Position numbers and translations under genes: made by a program | In this document: piece after piece, positions 46,514 to 63,741 of the stretch | Layout of the letters: every line of letters begins with the position of its first letter | Position numbering within the stretch: the first letter of the stretch is position 1 | Source of the DNA: Paludibacter sp. | GTDB lineage: Bacteria; Bacteroidota; Bacteroidia; Bacteroidales; Paludibacteraceae | DNA length: 64,000 nucleotides | Reading direction: 5' to 3' | NCBI GenBank assembly: GCA_034928015.1 | Contig: JAYFPF010000036.1 | Location: 15,669-79,668, forward strand | Notes under the pieces: generated by a model | The model's input: only the letters and a program-made list of their open reading frames with translations | Told to the model about the DNA's origin: nothing | Databases searched by the model: none

Positions 46514-47946
46514 CATTAGTGTCCGGTAAAGATAAAAAGAAATAGCAAAAAAAAGAGGGAACCTCCGAAGAAATCCCCTCTGATGTTTTAATTTTGTTTT
46601 GCAACTCAAAATTAAACATCATGGGCAAAGATACAAATTTTATCGGACAGCCGATCTTGGGACAGTTATTAAGTTTTTTGGATAAAGGAAAAATAAGGAA
46701 AGCCTCCAAGGCGTTGAAGGCAGACAGATATGTAAAGCGATTTGATAGCTATACGCATGTAGTTGTGATGTTGTTTGCTGTTTTCGAGGGATACCATTCC
46801 ATACGCGACACAGTGTTGGGCTTGTTATCTAATACAGTAAAGCTGCAACATTTAGGGCTGGATTATGTTGTTCGTCGTTCAACCTTCTCAGATGCCAATC
46901 ATCGTCGGCCTCATAAGCTGTTTGAACAAGTGTATTATCAAACATACGATGCACATAAGCATGTTTTATCGGACAGCCAACTGAGCAAAAAGGATATGAG
47001 GCGTTTGTATATCATGGATTCAACCACCATTACCCTGTTCAAGGATATTCTTAAGGGTGTTGGACGGAATCCTGAGAACGGGAAGAAAAAGGGTGGTATC
47101 AAGGCACATACGATCATTAATTCACAGGACAGTATGCCGTGTTTTGTCCGTTATACCGAATCAGCCCGGCATGACCATGTATTATTGAAGGATGTAGATT
47201 TGCCTGAGCATTCGTTCATCTGCTTTGATAAGGGTTATGTTGACTATGCACAGTATGATGTGTTCACATCGCGAAAGATATGGTATGTAACCCGTTTGAA
47301 GGATAATGCACTTTATCAGGCAAAACAAGAATTTGACATTCCCGATGATGTCCACGCGGGTGTATTAAAAGATGAAGAGATAGAGTTGTTTTATGGTGAG
47401 AACAAGCAACAGATACACAGAGCCAGAAGAATTGCATTTTGGGATGATGAAAATAATCGGGTATTTGAGTTTATCACCAATAATTTTGAATTGTCAGCCG
47501 ATGAGATAGCGCTGATCTACAAGAAAAGATGGCAAATTGAACTTCTGTTTAAACAATTAAAGCAGAACTTTCCGTTGAAATATTTTTTCGGTGACAATGA
47601 AAATGCGATTATCATACAAATATGGTCGGCTATGATTGCCAATCTGCTGCTAACCATATTACGAAGTAAAATAAAGAAAAAATGGGCGTTTTCAAACATG
47701 ATGTCTATCGTAAGATATCAACTGATGAGTTATATTAACGTATATGCTTTCTTTGAAGATCCGGAAAAAGCCTGGAGAAAGAAAATTGCTGAAGAAAAGG
47801 AACGTGAGAAATACAGGCAGGCTGATCCACAGCAATCTCTTTTCCCTTTACAGGGGGCTTGCTTTTGAAAATTAAAGAAAAACGGGCATCAATTGCCCTG
47901 TTTATGTTAGAATAAAAATAAATACCGGTTTTACCGGACAACAATG
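46514..47946 (+). mobile_element. IS4-family insertion sequence with no target duplication
   Basis: IRL CATTAGTGTCCGGTAAA (46514-46530), IRR TTTACCGGACAACAATG (47930-47946), 15/17 match. Flanks ATATTTTTT and AAAAATAAT are not direct repeats. Confidence 0.92.
46621..47868 (+). CDS. IS4-family transposase (DUF4372 + DDE)
   Basis: MDSTTI, FDKGY, YKKRWQIELLFKQLKQ. ATG 46621 follows the hairpin GATGTTTTAATTTTG...CAAAATTAAACATC. Confidence 0.93.
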   Translation: MGKDTNFIGQPILGQLLSFLDKGKIRKASKALKADRYVKRFDSYTHVVVMLFAVFEGYHSIRDTVLGLLSNTVKLQHLGLDYVVRRSTFSDANHRRPHKLFEQVYYQTYDAHKHVLSDSQLSKKDMRRLYIMDSTTITLFKDILKGVGRNPENGKKKGGIKAHTIINSQDSMPCFVRYTESARHDHVLLKDVDLPEHSFICFDKGYVDYAQYDVFTSRKIWYVTRLKDNALYQAKQEFDIPDDVHAGVLKDEEIELFYGENKQQIHRARRIAFWDDENNRVFEFITNNFELSADEIALIYKKRWQIELLFKQLKQNFPLKYFFGDNENAIIIQIWSAMIANLLLTILRSKIKKKWAFSNMMSIVRYQLMSYINVYAFFEDPEKAWRKKIAEEKEREKYRQADPQQSLFPLQGACF

Positions 47947-48903
47947 AAAAATAATAAAAACATTTCTAATTTTCATCCAAACATTTCCTTGGCTACCGCC
48001 TAAAGGGATATACAGATAATCTCTAAACCATGTAGAAAGAGATATATGCCATCGTCTCCAGAATTCAGCAATATCTCTTGAGAAATAAGGAAAGTTAAAG
48101 TTCCTCATCAAATTAAATCCAAATAATCTAGCTGTCCCGATCGCAATATCTGAATAGCCCGAGAAATCTCCATATATCTGAAATGTAAAAAACAAAGCTC
48201 CTAATATTAACGTGCTTGAAGAATATGTGGAGGAATTATTAAATATTTGATTTGCATATTCAGCACAATTATCTGCAATTACAATCTTTTTAAATAGTCC
48301 CCACAATATTTGTCTTAAACCATTTACAGCTGATAAATAATTAAATTCCCTTTTATTTGCGAACTGCGGTAGAAGTAAGGTTGCTCTTTCAATTGGTCCG
48401 GCTACTAATTGCGGAAAGAAACTAACAAATGCAGCAAAAGAGATGAAATCTCTTGTGGGAGTCATTCTTTTTTTATAAACATCAATTGTATAACTTAAAG
48501 TCTGAAAGGTGTAAAAACTTATCCCAACAGGTAGAATTATATTCAACGAACTAGCCTTTATGTTTAATCCAAAAAATGTGAATGCTGTGATAAAATTTTC
48601 GAGAAAGAAATTATAATATTTAAATAGTCCTAGCAACCCCAAATTAACAATAACACTTGTATATAGGAGTAAAGTTCTTTTTCTTTTATTACTTTCTTTC
48701 CCTAAAAAAAAACCTATAGTGTAATCTATTATAGTACTAAAAAAAATAAGAGACAAAAACCTCCAGTCCCACCAACCATAAAACACATAGCTTGCAATTA
48801 CAATCAGATGATTTTGTAGTTTTATGTTGTTTTTAAATAAAAACCAATAAAGAAAAAACACAATGGGCAGAAATATCCCAAACTCTAAGGAATTAAATAA
48901 CAT
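47947..48903 (-). pseudogene. MBOAT polysaccharide O-acyltransferase (AlgI/DltB family), 3'-truncated by IS4
   Basis: LPVGISFYTFQ, FFPQLVAGPI, FSGYSDIA, EFWRRWHISLS...YIPLGGS. After NVFIIF the frame runs into the IS end (HCCPVK), so the usual catalytic WHG segment is absent. Confidence 0.9.
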
Positions 48904-55282: not shown

Positions 55283-56030
55283 TCATTTTATCAGCCAATA
55301 ACCACCAGTTTTGAATGCTCCCTTAAATACTATTTTCTGTTCATCTCTCAAATATTTCAGCCATCTTTCTACGGTTCTTTGAGATACATTTAATTTTTCT
55401 CTCAATTCTGCAGACTTAATGCCCGGGTAATCTTCTACAAGCTTCAATAAGGTGTTTACTCCGACATTTACTCCGACATTTACTCCGACATTTTCAGTAA
55501 CATGATCAGTTGGTTTGGTTGAAATCTTTTGTTTTTCATATTGAAGTTCTACAAGAAAGCCACTCCCTACTTCTTTGTATTTCATTGTCATTGTGGGATA
55601 TGACAGAATTTCCTTTCTTATTCGGATATAACCACTGCCGTACTTTTCAATGTCTTTGGTAAGATAAAAAGCCTCTGCAATTAATTTGTTTCGCATATGC
55701 GATTGATATGTATCAGTACTAAGCTCTTCAATGGTAAGATTGCCAAAAAGTTTACCAGGGTTGAAAAAACTGATACTTTGATCAAATATCTTTATTTGAA
55801 TATCAACAGGACTTGTATAATCCCGGTGAATGATGGCACATAGTTTCCTGCCCAACTGTTACACCGACAAATTTACCGTTGTCGTCAATGCCAATAAATA
55901 CAGAACCTCCTGAAGTGTTTGAAAACGCAACAACAGTTTCGATGGCTTCGTCATTGAAACTAAGTTTAAACTCAATTGTATCCGATTCTCCGGCTTGAAT
56001 GAGTTTTTGTATGTTTGTTCCGCTTCCCAT
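55283..56030 (-). pseudogene. AlbA_2/Schlafen + HATPase-like + HTH protein with internal deletion and frameshift
   Basis: N-terminal frame GESDTIEFK...VAFSNTSGG...IGIDD joins the C-terminal frame AIIHRDY...RNKLIA...EKYGSG near 55841. A 12-bp unit TTTACTCCGACA x3 (55455-55490) lies in the C-terminal part. Confidence 0.8.
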
Positions 56031-57015: not shown

Positions 57016-57191
57016 TTTATAATTGTCTAACGACGAATGTCTAACGTCCTTTTTTTGTTATTTTATTACGCCCTTGGGGGGCTGACTGGTGACCGGCGAC
57101 TGGTGACATTTTCCACGGCAAAGCCCCGCCAGTCCCGTCTCGAACCAACTAATCCACTCATATACAACAACTCTCCTTTAATTCAGGAGAG

Positions 57192-57707
57192 TCACAATTT
57201 CTTCACTACGGCATCCAATGCCACCTGCACTTGCAAGCCTAACTTGTCGAGCAGTAACACGGCATATTTCTTTCCGATTTTAATCACCCTGCCTCCTGCA
57301 TCTTTCATCGGTCCAACTGCAACCCTTACTTCATCATCCAACTCTAAACTGCAGGATTTACCATTGGCACATTCCAAAAATTGCCGGATAGCCCTGATTT
57401 CCTGTGGTCGTACCACTGCCGGTTCTCCTTCAAAATAAACAATCCGCACCAAACCGGGAACACGAACCAAATCATACAAATCCGATTTCCGGGTTAAAAC
57501 AAAGAGATAAGACGGAAACAAGGGCATTTCTACCATTTTTATCCGGTCCGACCATTTACGGGGTGTCAAATGCAAAGGAAGAAAAACCTCGAACCCCTGA
57601 TTTATCAAACGTTGCTCTACCTGCTTTTCGGCTTTTGGAGCCGTATATACAACATACCATGCATGGCTTTGTTCAACAGTTTTTATATCTTTCGTTATCT
57701 CCCCCAT
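57192..57707 (-). CDS. upxY: UpxY/NusG-like transcription antiterminator
   Basis: WYVVYTAPKAEKQV, FLPL....RKWSDR....PLFPSYLFV, KOW-like GPMKDAGG. Confidence 0.9.
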   Translation of the reverse strand: MGEITKDIKTVEQSHAWYVVYTAPKAEKQVEQRLINQGFEVFLPLHLTPRKWSDRIKMVEMPLFPSYLFVLTRKSDLYDLVRVPGLVRIVYFEGEPAVVRPQEIRAIRQFLECANGKSCSLELDDEVRVAVGPMKDAGGRVIKIGKKYAVLLLDKLGLQVQVALDAVVKKL

Positions 57708-57819
57708 TAGTATTTAATCATCCTCAAATTTATCGTCCACAAATTTCGGTTATTGAACCGGATAAAACAAATTTTTTTATACTAAATAATCGTTTATTGA
57801 GCGAAACAATGTAACAAAC

Positions 57820-57847
57820 CGTCATTGCGAACGAAGCGAAGCAATCC
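57820..57847. repeat. CGTC-type REP
   Basis: CGTCATTGCGAACGAAGCGAAGCAATCC. Confidence 0.8.
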
Positions 57848-57868
57848 CCTCGCACCCGCACTTAGTTA

Positions 57869-58939
57869 TTACCCTTCCATAAACTCTTCCACCTGCCCTA
57901 AACTAAATCGCTGCATATTTGCACCCCGCTCCCTTGCCTGATACCACTCGATGGTCTTCCTGAGCGCCATTTCCGCATCCCACCGGGGCGTCCAGCCGAC
58001 AACAGGCACGTAACCCGCTGTCGTATCTCCGGCATAAGAAACTTCGCCGTTCAATTGCTTCTGTTCTGTTTTCAGGGCAGTTCCGGGGGTACCCCACAGT
58101 TCGCGAAAAGTTTGAGCTACCCATTTCTCATCTTTAAAAAACGATCCCTCCGGATAGATTCTGCTATCGCAAACAGAATCGGACATCTCACCAAGGTAAA
58201 AATTCCGGGTAGCTGTCAACACACCCGTAAGCATATCCAACACATGCAACATGAATCGAATATTATCGGGACGAACTTTAATTTGCTTCTGGTTAGACAA
58301 CATCGCCTGAACATATTCCTGTATCAGGTTATTTTTCGACCAGTCACCACCGCCAACAGGAGGAAATGTTTTAATATTAGCTACACTTTTAGGGAATGCC
58401 GGAGAATTGTTCGCATGAAAATATGCATTGCGGTATCCGGTAGTTAAAAATTCGGTCGATCTGAAGCTTCCGGTCACCAAATCCAATTCTCCCTGATTAT
58501 TCTTACCACAACTTTTCAGCATCATCGTACCCGAATAGTCCGGGACTAAATTAACGAAAACTCTTGTGTGAGCCGATTGCCGACACACTTCAAGTGCGTT
58601 TAATGAGCCCAGCAGGTTGATGGTATACAACTCTTTCGGCTCAACACTATCGATATAGCCACAAACAGAAGAAAGATGGATGACAATCTCAGGTTGCTGA
58701 AGTTGGTTAATGGTGTTGAAACGTTCGAAGTCCCGCACATCACCAATATACGAATGAATCAATTCATGTAAATCGGTTTCCTCATAAAAATTCGGATATA
58801 CGGGAGGTTTAATGGAAAATCCGCTGAGTTTCGCACCATAACTATGCAGCAAAAGCGTTAGCCATGATCCTATAAATGTGGTATGACCAATAATAAGTAT
58901 TTTCTTATCGTTGTAAAATTTTATCAAATCAGTTTGCAT
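57869..58939 (-). CDS. full-length RfbG (CDP-glucose 4,6-dehydratase) homolog with degenerate active site
   Basis: Collinear with RfbG (GSWL, GDVRD, GGGDW, HVL, GWTPRW). GHTGFKG has become GHTTFIG, TSDK has become VPDY, and YxxxK has become VTGSF. Confidence 0.78.
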   Translation of the reverse strand: MQTDLIKFYNDKKILIIGHTTFIGSWLTLLLHSYGAKLSGFSIKPPVYPNFYEETDLHELIHSYIGDVRDFERFNTINQLQQPEIVIHLSSVCGYIDSVEPKELYTINLLGSLNALEVCRQSAHTRVFVNLVPDYSGTMMLKSCGKNNQGELDLVTGSFRSTEFLTTGYRNAYFHANNSPAFPKSVANIKTFPPVGGGDWSKNNLIQEYVQAMLSNQKQIKVRPDNIRFMLHVLDMLTGVLTATRNFYLGEMSDSVCDSRIYPEGSFFKDEKWVAQTFRELWGTPGTALKTEQKQLNGEVSYAGDTTAGYVPVVGWTPRWDAEMALRKTIEWYQARERGANMQRFSLGQVEEFMEG

Positions 58940-58983
58940 GCATTCATCAAGGGGTTAAAGAATCTGGTATTTTCTGAGTTCGT

Positions 58984-61347
58984 CTATTTGCGTTTTTTCT
59001 TCCCGTAACCGTACCCATAACCATAAGCATATTTTCCTCCATACTTTTTGGACTCAATATCAACATCATTCACAATCAGATAAATTTGCTTGAGAGAATT
59101 CTCCTTGTGAATACGTTCTATAAATTCTAGATTACGTTTGTCGGAGAAATTAGCCCGGCAGACATAGAGTGTCAGATTAGACACACGATTAATCAGGAAC
59201 GTATCCGACACAGCTCCCACCGGAGCGGAGTCTATCAGAATATAGTCATACTGTTCGCGTAGCTCCGAAATAAGCTGATCAAAACGCTCACTGAGGATCA
59301 ATTCATTCGGGTTTGGGGGTATGATTCCTCCCGGCAATATATACAAATTCGGAAATTCTGATGAATGATGAATGAGTTTACGGTAATCATTCTCCATTCC
59401 CGACAAATAAGATGAAATACCTTCCTGCTCGACAATCCCGAAATGATTAGCCAGCATAGGTTTGCGCAGGTCCATCCCGATTAACAACACTTTCTTTCCG
59501 GTCAGTGAAATCGAAACTGCTAAGTTGATACTGACAAAAGTTTTTCCTTCACCCGACTCCGTCGATGTAATCAACAACAACCTGTCTTTGGGCCGGTTCA
59601 TGATAAACTGGAGTTTGCTTCGCAACAAGCGGAGCAGTTCCGCGTTGGCGCTGGCATTAGTGCCATGATCAATTACAACATCCGGACTGTTTTGGTGTGC
59701 AAGTTCAGCAATAATAGGGACACTTGTCAGACTTTCCACCTCTTTTCGATCGTTGAAGGTTGTAGTGAAAGTAAATTTGAGATACAGGAATCCAACCGGC
59801 AATAATAACCCGAGTAACAAAGAAGCAGCCAGGGTCATCGGAAGTTTGGGAGCTGTTTTATCTGCTGTATCAGCCGCATCGAGCAAACGTGCTTTCGGAA
59901 TGGTTACAGCCATACTTAAGGAAGCTTCTTCCCTTTTTTGCAACAGGAACATATACAGAGATGCCTTGATTTCCTGCTGTCTCTTTATTTCCAGGAATTC
60001 CCGTTCTTGTTGGGGAATCTTTTTTAACTGGGATGTCAGGAAAGCATTTTGGTTTTCCAACTCCCGAATGCTGATTTGCAATCCTTTTCGTGAGGTGGCA
60101 ATGCTGTTTTGAATTGACATCCGGCTCGATTGAATCTGCAATTCAAGACTTTGCAAGGTAGGATTGTTGCTTGATGAGCCACTCGCTACCCGATCACGGG
60201 ATACAAGCAATTTATTGTATTCCTGAATCACGGCAACCAATCCCACATCAGTTAAACCCAAATTAGGAATCAACGCGTATTTGTTGACAGGGTCTTTCAG
60301 AAACTCTTCGATATATTTTATCAATTGCAACTGAATCTCAGATTCGTTCATTTTCTGATCATATAAATTGCTTCTTTGCAGGTATATTTCTGCATCTGCA
60401 TCTATATTGGTAAGTTTATTGGTTTGTTTGTATTTTTGCAGATTTTGCTCTACATCCGTAAGTTCATCGGTCAACAAGTCCAAGCGACTGTCGATAAACA
60501 AGGCTGTAAAATTGGCCGATTTATTGATCTGATCGATGGCATCCTGGTTATACAAATCAATGAGCTTCTGAAGAAAGTCCTTCCCTTTTTGAATGTTTCT
60601 TTCTCTGAATGTGATGTTAACGAGATCTCCATCTTTGGGTACCTCTGTTGACAAAGCCGACTCCTGATAAGATTTAACGACAGAAAGCGGATTATGTATC
60701 TTAACATAAATTTTATCCTCGGGAACTGATTTCGGATCTTTCAACAAGACATGTATCTTACCGGCGGTTGTTTCAATAGTCGCAGGAAGTTGTGTCAATT
60801 TATACTCAAACTTATCGGTTTGAAAAGCTTTTTTATATTTTCCCGAAATTCGGTAAAGACCATCTGTGTCATATTCAACAGAAAATTCAAGTTTCCCGGC
60901 TATACGCAACAGATCTTCGTAACCCATATCAACTTCTATCGGACTGCTCGTATAAAGTTCGACGGGTTTCAGAAAAGATATTTTGGTGTAAACAGCATAC
61001 AATTTCAGGTCATTCACCACCTTTTTGATTAGTTCTTTCGAATGAACTACTTGTTTTTCATTGTAAATATTCGATGACCCGGTCGACATCCCGAAAGCAT
61101 CCAACTGCTTCAGTATGGACATCTGACTCACCTGCCCTGAAGAATTATCGGCAATGAGCAGGGTGGATTTAAACTGATACTGGTCCGGCTGAACCCGGTA
61201 ATAAACCAGTCCGGCAAGAAGCACGACTATAACAGAAAACAGTATCCATTTCCAGTACGCCAGGTATTTTTCAATCAACTCCCTCCAGTCGATAGGCTTC
61301 TCGACCATCAGTTGCTCTAATTCATCTACGTTTATATTCTTGTTCAT
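58984..61347 (-). CDS. wzc: Wzc/GumC tyrosine kinase chain-length regulator
   Basis: Two TMs, Walker A TSTESGEGKT, DLRKP, DSAPVG, C-terminal Tyr cluster KYAYGYGYGYG. Confidence 0.95.
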   Translation of the reverse strand: MNKNINVDELEQLMVEKPIDWRELIEKYLAYWKWILFSVIVVLLAGLVYYRVQPDQYQFKSTLLIADNSSGQVSQMSILKQLDAFGMSTGSSNIYNEKQVVHSKELIKKVVNDLKLYAVYTKISFLKPVELYTSSPIEVDMGYEDLLRIAGKLEFSVEYDTDGLYRISGKYKKAFQTDKFEYKLTQLPATIETTAGKIHVLLKDPKSVPEDKIYVKIHNPLSVVKSYQESALSTEVPKDGDLVNITFRERNIQKGKDFLQKLIDLYNQDAIDQINKSANFTALFIDSRLDLLTDELTDVEQNLQKYKQTNKLTNIDADAEIYLQRSNLYDQKMNESEIQLQLIKYIEEFLKDPVNKYALIPNLGLTDVGLVAVIQEYNKLLVSRDRVASGSSSNNPTLQSLELQIQSSRMSIQNSIATSRKGLQISIRELENQNAFLTSQLKKIPQQEREFLEIKRQQEIKASLYMFLLQKREEASLSMAVTIPKARLLDAADTADKTAPKLPMTLAASLLLGLLLPVGFLYLKFTFTTTFNDRKEVESLTSVPIIAELAHQNSPDVVIDHGTNASANAELLRLLRSKLQFIMNRPKDRLLLITSTESGEGKTFVSINLAVSISLTGKKVLLIGMDLRKPMLANHFGIVEQEGISSYLSGMENDYRKLIHHSSEFPNLYILPGGIIPPNPNELILSERFDQLISELREQYDYILIDSAPVGAVSDTFLINRVSNLTLYVCRANFSDKRNLEFIERIHKENSLKQIYLIVNDVDIESKKYGGKYAYGYGYGYGKKKRK

Positions 61348-61357
61348 CCGAATTAAT

Positions 61358-62167
61358 TTATCTTAATATATTAATAATCAATGTTGCAATCGAGATTAAA
61401 GTCCCTACGACCGATATAGAAAGTGATTCAGCCGTACTGATAGCCGAAGCACGTGCTCTGGAGTCGTTGGGTTCAACGTAAAGCACATCATTCTGTTGCA
61501 AATAGAAGTAGGGGGAGTTAACCAAGTTCTTATCCCGGATATCAATACGCACTGTTTCGCGATTTCCGTTATTTTCCCGTACCAACAACACACTTTCCCT
61601 GCGACCGTAAATGGTCATATCGCCTGCCATGGCCAGAGCTTCCAGAATAGATACTTTCTCATTATCAATCAGAAAAGATCCCGGTCGCATCACTTCACCC
61701 AAAACAGATACTTTAAAATTGGCATAACGAATCAGGATGATAGGCTCTTCTGTAATATACTGTGGATATATGGTTTTCTTTATTTGCTCGGCAAGGGCAG
61801 CTTTTGTCATACCAGCAACCCGCATTTTTCCGATGACCGGAAAAACTAAATTACCTTCCATATCTACCAGATAATTTTGCATACTCAATCCATATGAAAT
61901 ATAACTCCCGTTTCCGCCGCTATAACTCCTTGAAGACTCTCCGGCCGGGATTAAAGGAAGATTAAATGGCATTGCTGCTTCCGGAGTGTTTGTGTTAACC
62001 GTTATCATCAACACATCTCCAACTTTAATGACCGGATCCGGAACCGGAGTCTGAACAGAATCAGACAAGATTGCTTGTGTTCCTGCCTGTTGAAGATAAG
62101 CTACTTTCTGGTAGGCATTACAACCTGTCAACAGCGCTATAAACAACAGAAAAACTATTTTTCTCAT
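61358..62167 (-). CDS. wza: Wza-like polysaccharide export lipoprotein
   Basis: ATG 62167 gives lipobox LLTGC; IKVGDVL, VLGEVMRPG, LEALAMAGD, LQQNDVLYVEPN. Confidence 0.92.
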   Translation of the reverse strand: MRKIVFLLFIALLTGCNAYQKVAYLQQAGTQAILSDSVQTPVPDPVIKVGDVLMITVNTNTPEAAMPFNLPLIPAGESSRSYSGGNGSYISYGLSMQNYLVDMEGNLVFPVIGKMRVAGMTKAALAEQIKKTIYPQYITEEPIILIRYANFKVSVLGEVMRPGSFLIDNEKVSILEALAMAGDMTIYGRRESVLLVRENNGNRETVRIDIRDKNLVNSPYFYLQQNDVLYVEPNDSRARASAISTAESLSISVVGTLISIATLIINILR

Positions 62168-62239
62168 TACTCGAATCATATATTACAATTAAATATTTTT
62201 ATCCAAATTACCAACGAATTTTATTTGTCTTTATTGCCC

Positions 62240-62284: not shown

Positions 62285-63670
62285 CTATCTCGCATTCATA
62301 AAGGCCTTTAAATCAAATATCGTTTTCCACACAATCACGATATCCCAATCCAATGACCAGTTATTAATATACTCCTTGTCCATTTCCACCCGTTTTTCCA
62401 TCTTCCACAACTGGTCCGTTTCACCACGGAAACCATTGATTTGCGCCCAACCGGTTATTCCCGGTTTCACATAATGCCGCACCAGATAATCATTAACCAG
62501 CGCCGAATATTTTTCGGTATGTGCCAGCATGTGTGGTCGCGGTCCCACTACCGACATATCTCCTTTAAATACATTAAAGAATTGCGGCAGTTCATCCAGG
62601 TTCGTGCGACGAATAAACTTACCGATTTTGGTTATACGCGGATCATCCTCGGTAGCCTGTTTGAAATCGGCCTCGGCATTCATTCGCATACTGCGGAATT
62701 TGTAGCAGTTAAAGGTAATCTTATTGATGCCTGTACGTTGCTGAGTGAACAAGACCGGCCCCTTAGAACTCAACTTGATTAGCATTGCCAGAATCGGGTA
62801 CAACCACGATAGCAAAAAGAGTATCACCATGCCCGAGAAAACCAGATCGAAAATTCTCTTCTTGATTTGATTTTCAATATGATCCATCGGTATCTTTTGC
62901 GGATTAATAACAGTAATACCATTCAGCTGGTCGGTATCATAATGCTTGGTTTCTATTTTTTCATTCACAGGTACAAAAAACAAACGCACACCCAACTGGT
63001 TACAGGTATGCAGCAAATCTTTGTTGATATCGCAATATGGTATGAGTTCCTGCTGACTCGTGATGGCAACAAATACCACATGAATCTGATGTTCTTCCAC
63101 TATTTTCCTGAGCTCATCGCGGGTTCCCAGCACGTGTTTACCCGGAGTATCGTCGAGATACCCGACAAACATATATTTCAGTATGGGGTTAACCTTAATG
63201 ATACGTTTCACTTTGTGCATGGTCTCGTTTTTACCCACGAGCAACACCCTTTTTACCCGACTGCTTTTCAAGTGATAATACTTAACAAGCCTGTAATATA
63301 AGTAATTGGCCAGCAACTTACCGAACACAAAGAAGATACTGGTAACAAGAATATACAGCCATAAGTATTCAATTATAGAAATAAAAGGCAGAAAAAAAAG
63401 GCCTTCTAACAGCAAGAAGACAATCGCTCGCCTGGTCATCCTGAAAAAACGAGTTCGGAATCCCTTTTTAACATACAACATGCGCTTCCTGACAAAGATG
63501 AAAGCCATCACCCAGGAAAAATTAGCCAGCAACAGACATAAATATATGTCCATGCTATGTTCAAAATGAAAACGATAAAGGATAAAAGCAAAAAACAAAA
63601 AGGAAAGATTCAGCAACAGCAAATCTAACACAACAGAAATAAATTGCAATTCATTTTCACGGGTTTTCAT
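62285..63670 (-). CDS. undecaprenyl-phosphate sugar-1-phosphate transferase (WcaJ-like)
   Basis: KRIFDLVFS, FNCYKFRSM, RRTNLDELPQFFNV, SVVGPRP, KPGITGWAQ. ATG 63670 preferred because TTG 63736 falls in the promoter. Confidence 0.93.
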   Translation of the reverse strand: MKTRENELQFISVVLDLLLLNLSFLFFAFILYRFHFEHSMDIYLCLLLANFSWVMAFIFVRKRMLYVKKGFRTRFFRMTRRAIVFLLLEGLFFLPFISIIEYLWLYILVTSIFFVFGKLLANYLYYRLVKYYHLKSSRVKRVLLVGKNETMHKVKRIIKVNPILKYMFVGYLDDTPGKHVLGTRDELRKIVEEHQIHVVFVAITSQQELIPYCDINKDLLHTCNQLGVRLFFVPVNEKIETKHYDTDQLNGITVINPQKIPMDHIENQIKKRIFDLVFSGMVILFLLSWLYPILAMLIKLSSKGPVLFTQQRTGINKITFNCYKFRSMRMNAEADFKQATEDDPRITKIGKFIRRTNLDELPQFFNVFKGDMSVVGPRPHMLAHTEKYSALVNDYLVRHYVKPGITGWAQINGFRGETDQLWKMEKRVEMDKEYINNWSLDWDIVIVWKTIFDLKAFMNAR

Positions 63671-63733
63671 ACAAGCAATCAGTAGGTATATGTTGTTAAA
63701 CCTGTGTAGTCTAACTTTTTTATTTAAACCGTG

Positions 63734-63741
63734 CAAAGTTA
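63734..63741 (-). promoter_or_regulatory. -7 box of the polysaccharide locus promoter
   Basis: Minus-strand TAACTTTG. Confidence 0.6.

Follow-up and report, generated by a model that had tools for sequence, protein, structure and literature searches.

A predicted pseudoenzyme family descended from CDP-glucose 4,6-dehydratase follows wzc in Paludibacter-like Bacteroidales

The rfbG* locus and the residues lost from its product

The window analysed here is a 64,000-nucleotide stretch of a Paludibacter sp. genome (contig JAYFPF010000036.1 of assembly GCA_034928015.1). Our subject is a 356-aa open reading frame (ORF) on its minus strand (57869-58939; product P0001), which we named rfbG*, a predicted catalytically dead paralogue of CDP-glucose 4,6-dehydratase (RfbG). 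These boundaries coincide exactly with those of an earlier sequence-only reading, which gave no strand. Four minus-strand genes lie in the order wcaJ, wza, wzc, rfbG*. The first (62285-63736) encodes a WcaJ/WbaP-type polyprenyl-phosphate hexose-1-phosphate transferase, the initiating enzyme, and wza (61358-62179) encodes an outer-membrane polysaccharide export (OPX) protein of only 273 aa, in which Poly_export and SLBB domains are found. The product of wzc (58984-61347) is a 787-aa bacterial tyrosine kinase (BY-kinase) and polysaccharide co-polymerase of class 2a (PCP-2a) with Wzz, GNVR and P-loop kinase domains, ending in a YAYGYGYGYG tyrosine cluster and a KKKRK tail. The gap between wzc and rfbG* is 44 nt, and their reading frames differ. 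Beyond rfbG* the same strand carries upxY (57192-57707), for a NusG-family antiterminator (NF033644, 114 bits; cut-off 100), followed by a TviC-like epimerase gene, a 190-aa gene fragment, ugd, a GT1 gene, wzx, wzy, a GT4 gene and an MBOAT gene.

The sequence-only reading had described an uninterrupted ORF collinear with CDP-glucose 4,6-dehydratase, and this was borne out along the whole protein. The NCBIfam equivalog model of that enzyme, TIGR02622, aligned over positions 1-352 of 352, and the Protein Data Bank (PDB) entries 1wvg (E 6e-44) and 1rkx (E 8e-39) aligned with residues 7-354. The TIGR02622 score of 186.5 bits lies under the curated cut-off of 278.45, which leaves rfbG* outside the equivalog, and a true RfbG in a related genome reached 504 bits. 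Pfam sees the N-terminal Rossmann part only (PF01370, Epimerase; 46.8 bits, cut-off 20.9, residues 14-129). An AlphaFold2 model built with 26 relatives was confident (mean predicted local distance difference test 82.4, predicted template-modelling score 0.88). Its low-confidence stretches, residues 138-145 and 295-306, are the sites of substrate loops in the true enzymes. The top PDB folds for the model were again 1wvg and 1rkx, with template-modelling (TM) scores of about 0.80, and further matches at 0.6-0.7 were other epimerases and dehydratases of the extended short-chain dehydrogenase/reductase (SDR) superfamily, among which the predicted fold belongs. Given the end-to-end alignments, the confident model and the two best folds, rfbG* is predicted to encode a full-length, folded RfbG homologue. 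That the frame is genuine and did not arise by chance follows from the existence of homologues and from the large excess of synonymous over non-synonymous changes in it.

We compared 28 members of the variant clade to which rfbG* belongs with 212 true enzymes, defined by the presence of both [ST]DK and YxxxK. In rfbG*, the segment TTDKCYEN has become VPDY---S: the Thr is lost (V132), the Ser position is occupied by P133, the Asp is kept (D134), the Lys is lost, and three residues are deleted. The motif YsnSK reads VtgSF, so that V155 replaces the catalytic Tyr and F159 the catalytic Lys. The catalytic positions of these two segments are 98-100% conserved in the true enzymes and 0% in the clade. 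The glycine motif GHTGFKG reads GHTTFIG (G21T, K23I), with the first and third Gly kept; the middle Gly (100% in true enzymes) and the Lys (94%) of this dinucleotide-binding motif are both lost, and a conserved Thr takes the place of the middle Gly in 89% of the clade. The earlier statement that the NAD-binding glycine motif, the TSDK segment and YxxxK are all substituted therefore stands for the latter two, and for the glycine motif only in part.

The losses reach beyond the catalytic motifs. Among 76 columns at least 90% conserved in the true enzymes, 26 were kept in the clade, 14 were partly kept and 36 were lost. The lost columns comprise all four catalytic residues together with R190, N193 (RAGN), R204, R222, R228 (R-P-W-Q segment), N260 (NFGP) and E292. 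We take R190, N193, R204, R222, R228-P-W-Q, N260 and E292, from homology with RmlB-type dehydratases, to line the nucleoside-diphosphate (NDP)-sugar site. The clade has also gained invariant positions that true enzymes do not have, among them S90, G94, P133, G157, F159, G168, E271, R336, R338, A340, Q343 and R344, and clade-specific motifs are found at 157-174 (GSFRSTEFLTTGYRNAYF), at 329-346 (TIEWxQARERGANMQRFS) and in GGGDWSKNN. Where the active site used to be, residues are now conserved as hydrophobic or small ones (P133, L154, V/I/M155, G157, F159), a pattern suggesting that the cleft has been filled and that no new catalytic centre has formed.

Set against RfbG/DdhB/Eod (TIGR02622; 1wvg, 1rkx), rfbG* has the same length, is collinear and shares the two-domain extended-SDR fold (TM 0.80) and the scaffold residues G18, H19, G24, W26, N108, D134, S158, E163, GGGDW and W332. 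It differs in its score (186 bits against the 278-bit cut-off), in the replacement of the catalytic residues, the middle Gly and most substrate contacts, in the three-residue deletion after the TDK position, and in its setting: it is encoded after wzc, not after rfbF, in a genome with neither an rfbF partner nor a CDP-glucose pathway.

Single origin, distribution and selection

A large protein search returned 27 clusters (P0002-P0028) with 42-97% identity to rfbG*, below which identity fell abruptly to 34% or less, the range of ordinary RfbG enzymes. An exhaustive search of representatives added two further divergent members, P0122 and P0123 (32-34% identity). The catalytic substitutions are common to all variant family members. 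The annotated start of P0028 is too short; its frame extends upstream, where it encodes GHTTFRG. The 28 variants formed a monophyletic group (support 1.0) in a maximum-likelihood tree built from 240 sequences. No internal branch was longer than their stem, which measured 0.61 substitutions per site, the median being 0.07. The median root-to-tip depth inside the clade was 0.95 substitutions per site. A monophyletic clade with a very long stem and deep internal divergence points to one origin, a burst of change and then long persistence. The true sequences nearest to rfbG* are Bacteroidales RfbG.

Searches of GTDB representatives (121 genomes of the family, 401 of the order) found no variant outside the genus. 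The carriers were the genome of the window and G086 among the family genomes, and the genome of the window alone among the order genomes. Two order-wide matches from other families (256-265 bits) and a match in G062 were considered as variants and set aside, all three being true RfbG enzymes. The family is confined to a narrow lineage of Bacteroidales, namely Paludibacter-like environmental anaerobes.

The absence of rfbF and rfbH from the locus, noted earlier, was confirmed, and for rfbF it extended to the whole genome. No rfbF- or rfbH-type gene was found at the locus. The genome, 96.6% complete, contained no rfbF (best TIGR02623 match 21 bits, cut-off 300) and no true rfbG, its next-best TIGR02622 match being an ordinary, motif-intact dTDP-glucose 4,6-dehydratase. 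Likewise, no rfbF above the cut-off and no true rfbG were found in the four other carrier genomes (G086, G124, G131 and G138). Judged by gene content, the five carriers are predicted to be unable to make CDP-glucose. A genuine pathway does exist in the genus, because in the congener G062 an intact rfbF (405 bits) and a true rfbG (504 bits) adjoin each other in this order (C23:9159-10996), the latter with the motifs GHTGFKG, TTDKCYEN and YSNSK.

To ask whether rfbG* is retained, the sequence-only reading had proposed the ratio of non-synonymous to synonymous substitution rates (dN/dS) of orthologues at the wzc-upxY position, on the view that loss of every catalytic motif without a frameshift or stop suggests a retained non-catalytic role. 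Orthologues were intact, with no stops or frameshifts, in 14 of 14 distinct DNA loci spanning 32-97% identity, and all carried the same substitutions. By the Nei-Gojobori method, for pairs with unsaturated dS, dN/dS was 0.090 between the window and L011, 0.079 between the window and L012, 0.084 for L011-L012 and 0.153 for L013-L014, a range of 0.079-0.153 in the close group (dS 0.2-0.64). In the divergent group it was 0.25-0.26 (L018-L009, 0.259; L017-L009, 0.248). The neighbouring genes gave similar values (wzc 0.035-0.136; wza and upxY about 0.08-0.14). Constraint was tightest over residues 1-135, the N-terminal Rossmann half (0.02-0.06 in the close group), and weakest over the substrate domain, residues 250-315 (0.10-0.35); the C-terminal motif region gave 0.07-0.23. 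The wzc-linked orthologues are therefore neither catalytically intact nor frameshifted with dN/dS near 1. Intact orthologues, shared substitutions and dN/dS as low as that of the neighbours (0.08-0.26 overall) argue for a pseudoenzyme retained under purifying selection, and not for decay.

Traces of recombination were also seen here. About 1 kb of the window (58753-59752), covering the 3' end of wzc and the 5' third of rfbG*, is 99-100% identical to the locus L011 from a metagenome-assembled genome, with flanks at 60-90%. Loci L018 and L009 are identical across wcaJ-wza-wzc and begin to diverge inside rfbG*. P0004 is a chimera, P0001-like in its N-terminal 250 residues and P0006-like in its C-terminal part.

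Taken together, the predicted products form what we regard as a real and conserved pseudoenzyme family with a clear genomic association. They agree with the operational definition of a pseudoenzyme: an enzyme homologue that has lost its catalytic residues, remains intact and is under purifying selection across species. Full-text searches of the literature turned up neither an inactive RfbG nor a Wzc partner of SDR type.

Linkage to wzc and the neighbouring genes

The gene immediately upstream of rfbG*, on the same strand, was wzc in 15 of 15 loci with upstream sequence, at gaps of about 20-120 nt, and this linkage extended to the divergent members P0123 (32% identity) and P0028. Every locus with enough upstream sequence had the full order wcaJ-wza-wzc-rfbG*. 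On the downstream side, the sequence-only reading had placed rfbG* next to upxY, which is correct for the window, where upxY (57192-57707) lies on the same strand, and does not hold as a general rule. upxY followed in about 8 of 16 loci, all in the close Paludibacter group (the window and seven others). It was not the next gene in L006, L007, L016, L017, L018, L039 and L040, which instead had a flippase gene (L007, L040), an epimerase gene (L016), a GFO/IDH/MocA oxidoreductase gene (L039) or a gene for a conserved protein of about 750 aa (L006, L017, L018). The glycan genes past upxY also vary between loci. Because the linkage to wzc is constant while the downstream genes vary, we assign rfbG*, on gene order, to the conserved initiation/export module and not to upxY or the serotype-specific genes.

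Within the genus (31 genomes), Wzc orthologues with at least 73% identity were followed by rfbG* (L028, L029), and nine orthologues at about 50% identity were not. In three of the three checkable loci of the latter group, wcaJ was not directly upstream of wza. C-terminal Tyr clusters were present in both Wzc groups. In four same-genus loci with a wzc at about 50% identity (L031, L032, L034 and L037), one or two ORFs of 160-260 aa come after wzc, where rfbG* is absent; they have signal peptides, are rich in Gly and aromatic residues and resemble outer-membrane beta-barrels of small size. Such ORFs, taken with a Wza of only 273 aa, recall OPX-plus-beta-barrel export systems (PMC9601211). No barrel gene was seen at the rfbG* loci.

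Between rfbG* and upxY, we identified a conserved promoter-like element of about 55 nt (57729-57787, minus strand), comprising TTTG (57771-57768), a 20-nt spacer and GAAATTTG (57747-57740). It is common to six loci whose flanks are otherwise unalignable, and its layout resembles that of a Bacteroidetes promoter. The element is probably the promoter of a upxY operon, and since it separates the two genes, upxY probably starts its own transcription unit. As a promoter it would leave upxY a 5' leader of only about 30 nt. A scan of 57100-59100 for sigma-70 promoters and terminators gave nothing above shuffled expectation and no terminator after rfbG*. Right after the rfbG* stop (57800-57860, minus strand) lies a GC-rich segment of repeated TTCGC/GCAATGAC units (GATTGCTTCGCTTCGTTCGCAATGAC), which is also present, duplicated, in L011 and may be a repetitive extragenic palindrome (REP)-like element.

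Two neighbours were considered as partners of rfbG* and rejected. The protein of about 750 aa, which has no Pfam family and follows rfbG* in a divergent subclade (L018, 9204-11447; L006, 4314-6581), has a homologue with 56% identity in the genome of the window that sits on another contig (C46:25173-27329), so its linkage is not general. A heteromer with the downstream TviC-like epimerase was discarded as a general explanation, that gene being missing from most loci. Two further features of the window lie in the glycan region. The 190-aa ORF (55283-55855, minus strand; HATPase_c_4 and HTH_11) resembles what would be left of the C-terminal part of a 464-aa protein, whose intact AlbA_2/HATPase_c_4/HTH form is encoded in L001-L003, between upxY and ugd. 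The MBOAT O-acyltransferase gene, which lies farthest along the capsule locus, directly adjoins an insertion-sequence transposase gene (DDE_Tnp_1) on the opposite strand (46594-48903).

Possible roles of rfbG*

We consider it somewhat probable that the rfbG* product assists the initiation/export module as a non-catalytic accessory protein, with Wzc as its most likely target; both the role and the partner are inferred from linkage and sequence. In such a scheme, a Bacteroidales CDP-glucose 4,6-dehydratase would have given rise to rfbG* once, through a burst of change that stripped the hydride-transfer and dehydration residues and most NDP-sugar contacts and left the extended-SDR fold in place, with purifying selection acting since. 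As the last gene of a wcaJ-wza-wzc-rfbG* module that would provide the nearby glycan genes, variable as they are, with initiation, chain-length control and export, rfbG* would encode a cytoplasmic, non-catalytic subunit. Its most probable docking site, or target of modulation, would be the cytoplasmic kinase domain of Wzc, with the initiating transferase WcaJ as the alternative. The candidate contact surfaces, which are clade-invariant, would be two long helices (101-121 and 146-173) and the Arg-rich C-terminal turn ARERGANMQR. In SDRs, the two equivalent helices form the dimer bundle. More tentatively, in a form that we would sooner expect to fail than to hold, the protein would be a dedicated regulatory subunit of a so far undescribed kind, an accessory factor for Wzc-type BY-kinases or WcaJ-type transferases recruited from a sugar-nucleotide dehydratase. 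Its Rossmann half may read a nucleotide or dinucleotide and its Arg-rich turn may dock on the Wzc kinase domain or the phosphorylated Tyr cluster, coupling metabolic state to polysaccharide initiation and export.

Several observations weigh against an accessory protein of Wzc. Adjacency and co-occurrence would be explained just as well if the partner were WcaJ or Wza, or if the role had nothing to do with either. The family is sporadic even inside the genus, and the module works without rfbG* in relatives. Recombination breakpoints cluster in or beside the gene, as seen from the identity block shared with L011, the point at which L018 and L009 diverge and the P0004 chimera, which places it at the edge of the conserved module. 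Finally, the tightest constraint falls on the N-terminal Rossmann half (dN/dS 0.02-0.06) and the replacement of the middle Gly is conserved (Thr 89%), so that the protein may bind some nucleotide or have acquired a new chemistry. For the same reason, we keep a neo-functionalised enzyme and a ligand sensor as rivals.

A neo-functionalised enzyme, which would keep the Rossmann fold but use a different active site or nucleotide for a reaction needed by the module, is an unlikely candidate. It would explain why the Rossmann half is the most constrained part, why the first and third Gly, H19 and W26 are kept while the middle Gly has become a conserved Thr, and why the polar positions D134, E151, D153, S158, R160, E163, H232, D235 and E271 are invariant. 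The old active site, however, has mainly hydrophobic or small residues (P133, L154, V/I/M155, G157, F159), like a filled pocket. The protein has no Lys left to anchor the nicotinamide ribose, the P0021-P0027 subclade no longer has the Asp of GDVRD that binds adenine, and the substrate domain (250-315) is the most variable part. Nor is a common substrate evident, because the downstream glycan genes differ by locus. Improbable in our judgement is a non-catalytic ligand sensor, which would bind a nucleotide-sugar or NAD(H) and signal metabolic state to Wzc, WcaJ or transcription in the manner of NmrA. In its favour, the GGGDW loop survives together with parts of the Rossmann motif, the N-terminal domain is strongly constrained, and atypical SDRs such as NmrA offer a precedent. 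Yet the clade has lost the NDP-sugar contacts that the 212 true enzymes conserve, its members do not even share the phosphate-binding Arg of IRPWQH, and none of the five carrier genomes could support CDP-glucose synthesis. From the dinucleotide motif the middle Gly and K23 have disappeared, as has the Lys of YxxxK, and no match to the NmrA family was obtained.

That rfbG* is a partner or regulator of the UpxY antiterminator heading the downstream glycan operon appears very unlikely to us. The same-strand adjacency in the window and seven close loci speaks for it, but the seven loci named above have a flippase, epimerase, oxidoreductase or ~750-aa protein gene in place of upxY, and the conserved promoter-like element lies between the two genes. 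Simple decay, with rfbG* as a dying rfbG left behind by loss of the CDP-sugar pathway, would account for the missing catalytic residues and pathway partners and is otherwise barely credible, since stops and frameshifts are absent from 14 loci spanning 32-97% identity, dN/dS is well under 1 in every gene region, new invariant motifs have arisen and the clade is old (median path from the root 0.95 substitutions per site). A phosphatase role, substituting for Wzb, was rejected because there is no conserved Cys and no match to a phosphatase family. The sequence-only reading had offered three non-catalytic roles. Of these, a Wzc partner fits best with the linkage in 15 of 15 loci. A UpxY partner fits poorly, with upxY next in about 8 of 16 loci only and a promoter-like element in between, as does a nucleotide-sugar sensor, with the NDP-sugar positions lost, the C-terminal substrate domain most variable and no carrier that makes CDP-glucose.

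The comparison with NmrA-like regulatory SDRs, made in the same reading, survives as an analogy. NmrA and HSCARG/NMRAL1, which are SDR relatives with a Rossmann fold, have no catalytic Tyr and work through protein-protein contacts, and what rfbG* may share with them is the idea of a retained, non-catalytic SDR. However, rfbG* had no PF05368 match at E values up to 1. The glycine motif of NmrA is intact and binds NAD(P), whereas that of rfbG* is damaged and its NAD binding doubtful. Furthermore, NmrA is of NmrA/isoflavone-reductase-like origin and rfbG* of extended-SDR sugar-dehydratase ancestry. A parallel in gene context is offered by the accessory proteins of Wzc-type BY-kinase systems, namely the phosphatase Wzb and SDR-fold substrates such as Ugd and CapO, since rfbG* is the neighbour of wzc in an export module of the Wzx/Wzy type. 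Sugar-nucleotide enzymes with a Rossmann fold are known targets of BY-kinases. In contrast to Wzb, rfbG* is not homologous to low-molecular-weight protein tyrosine phosphatases (LMW-PTP) or PHP phosphatases and has no conserved Cys, and unlike Ugd it is predicted to have no catalytic activity to be regulated. A review of BY-kinases cites the activation of Ugd and mentions no SDR-like Wzc partner (PMC9800525).

Members of the family are publicly annotated as 'CDP-glucose 4,6-dehydratase' or 'GDP-mannose 4,6-dehydratase', that is, as active enzymes, which would lead to a false prediction of 3,6-dideoxyhexose or 6-deoxyhexose synthesis in carrier genomes. The conserved, non-glycan-specific parts that Wzx/Wzy-dependent capsule systems are thought to need are only Wza, Wzc and, in some lineages, a phosphatase. 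Although its significance is limited by the narrow host range of Paludibacter-like environmental anaerobes, an accessory protein of the initiation/export module, if rfbG* does encode one, would be a clean natural case of a sugar-nucleotide dehydratase turned pseudoenzyme. It would also be a fourth conserved cytoplasmic component without an enzymatic role, and would thereby indicate an unrecognised layer of control over the activity of the BY-kinase or the initiating transferase.

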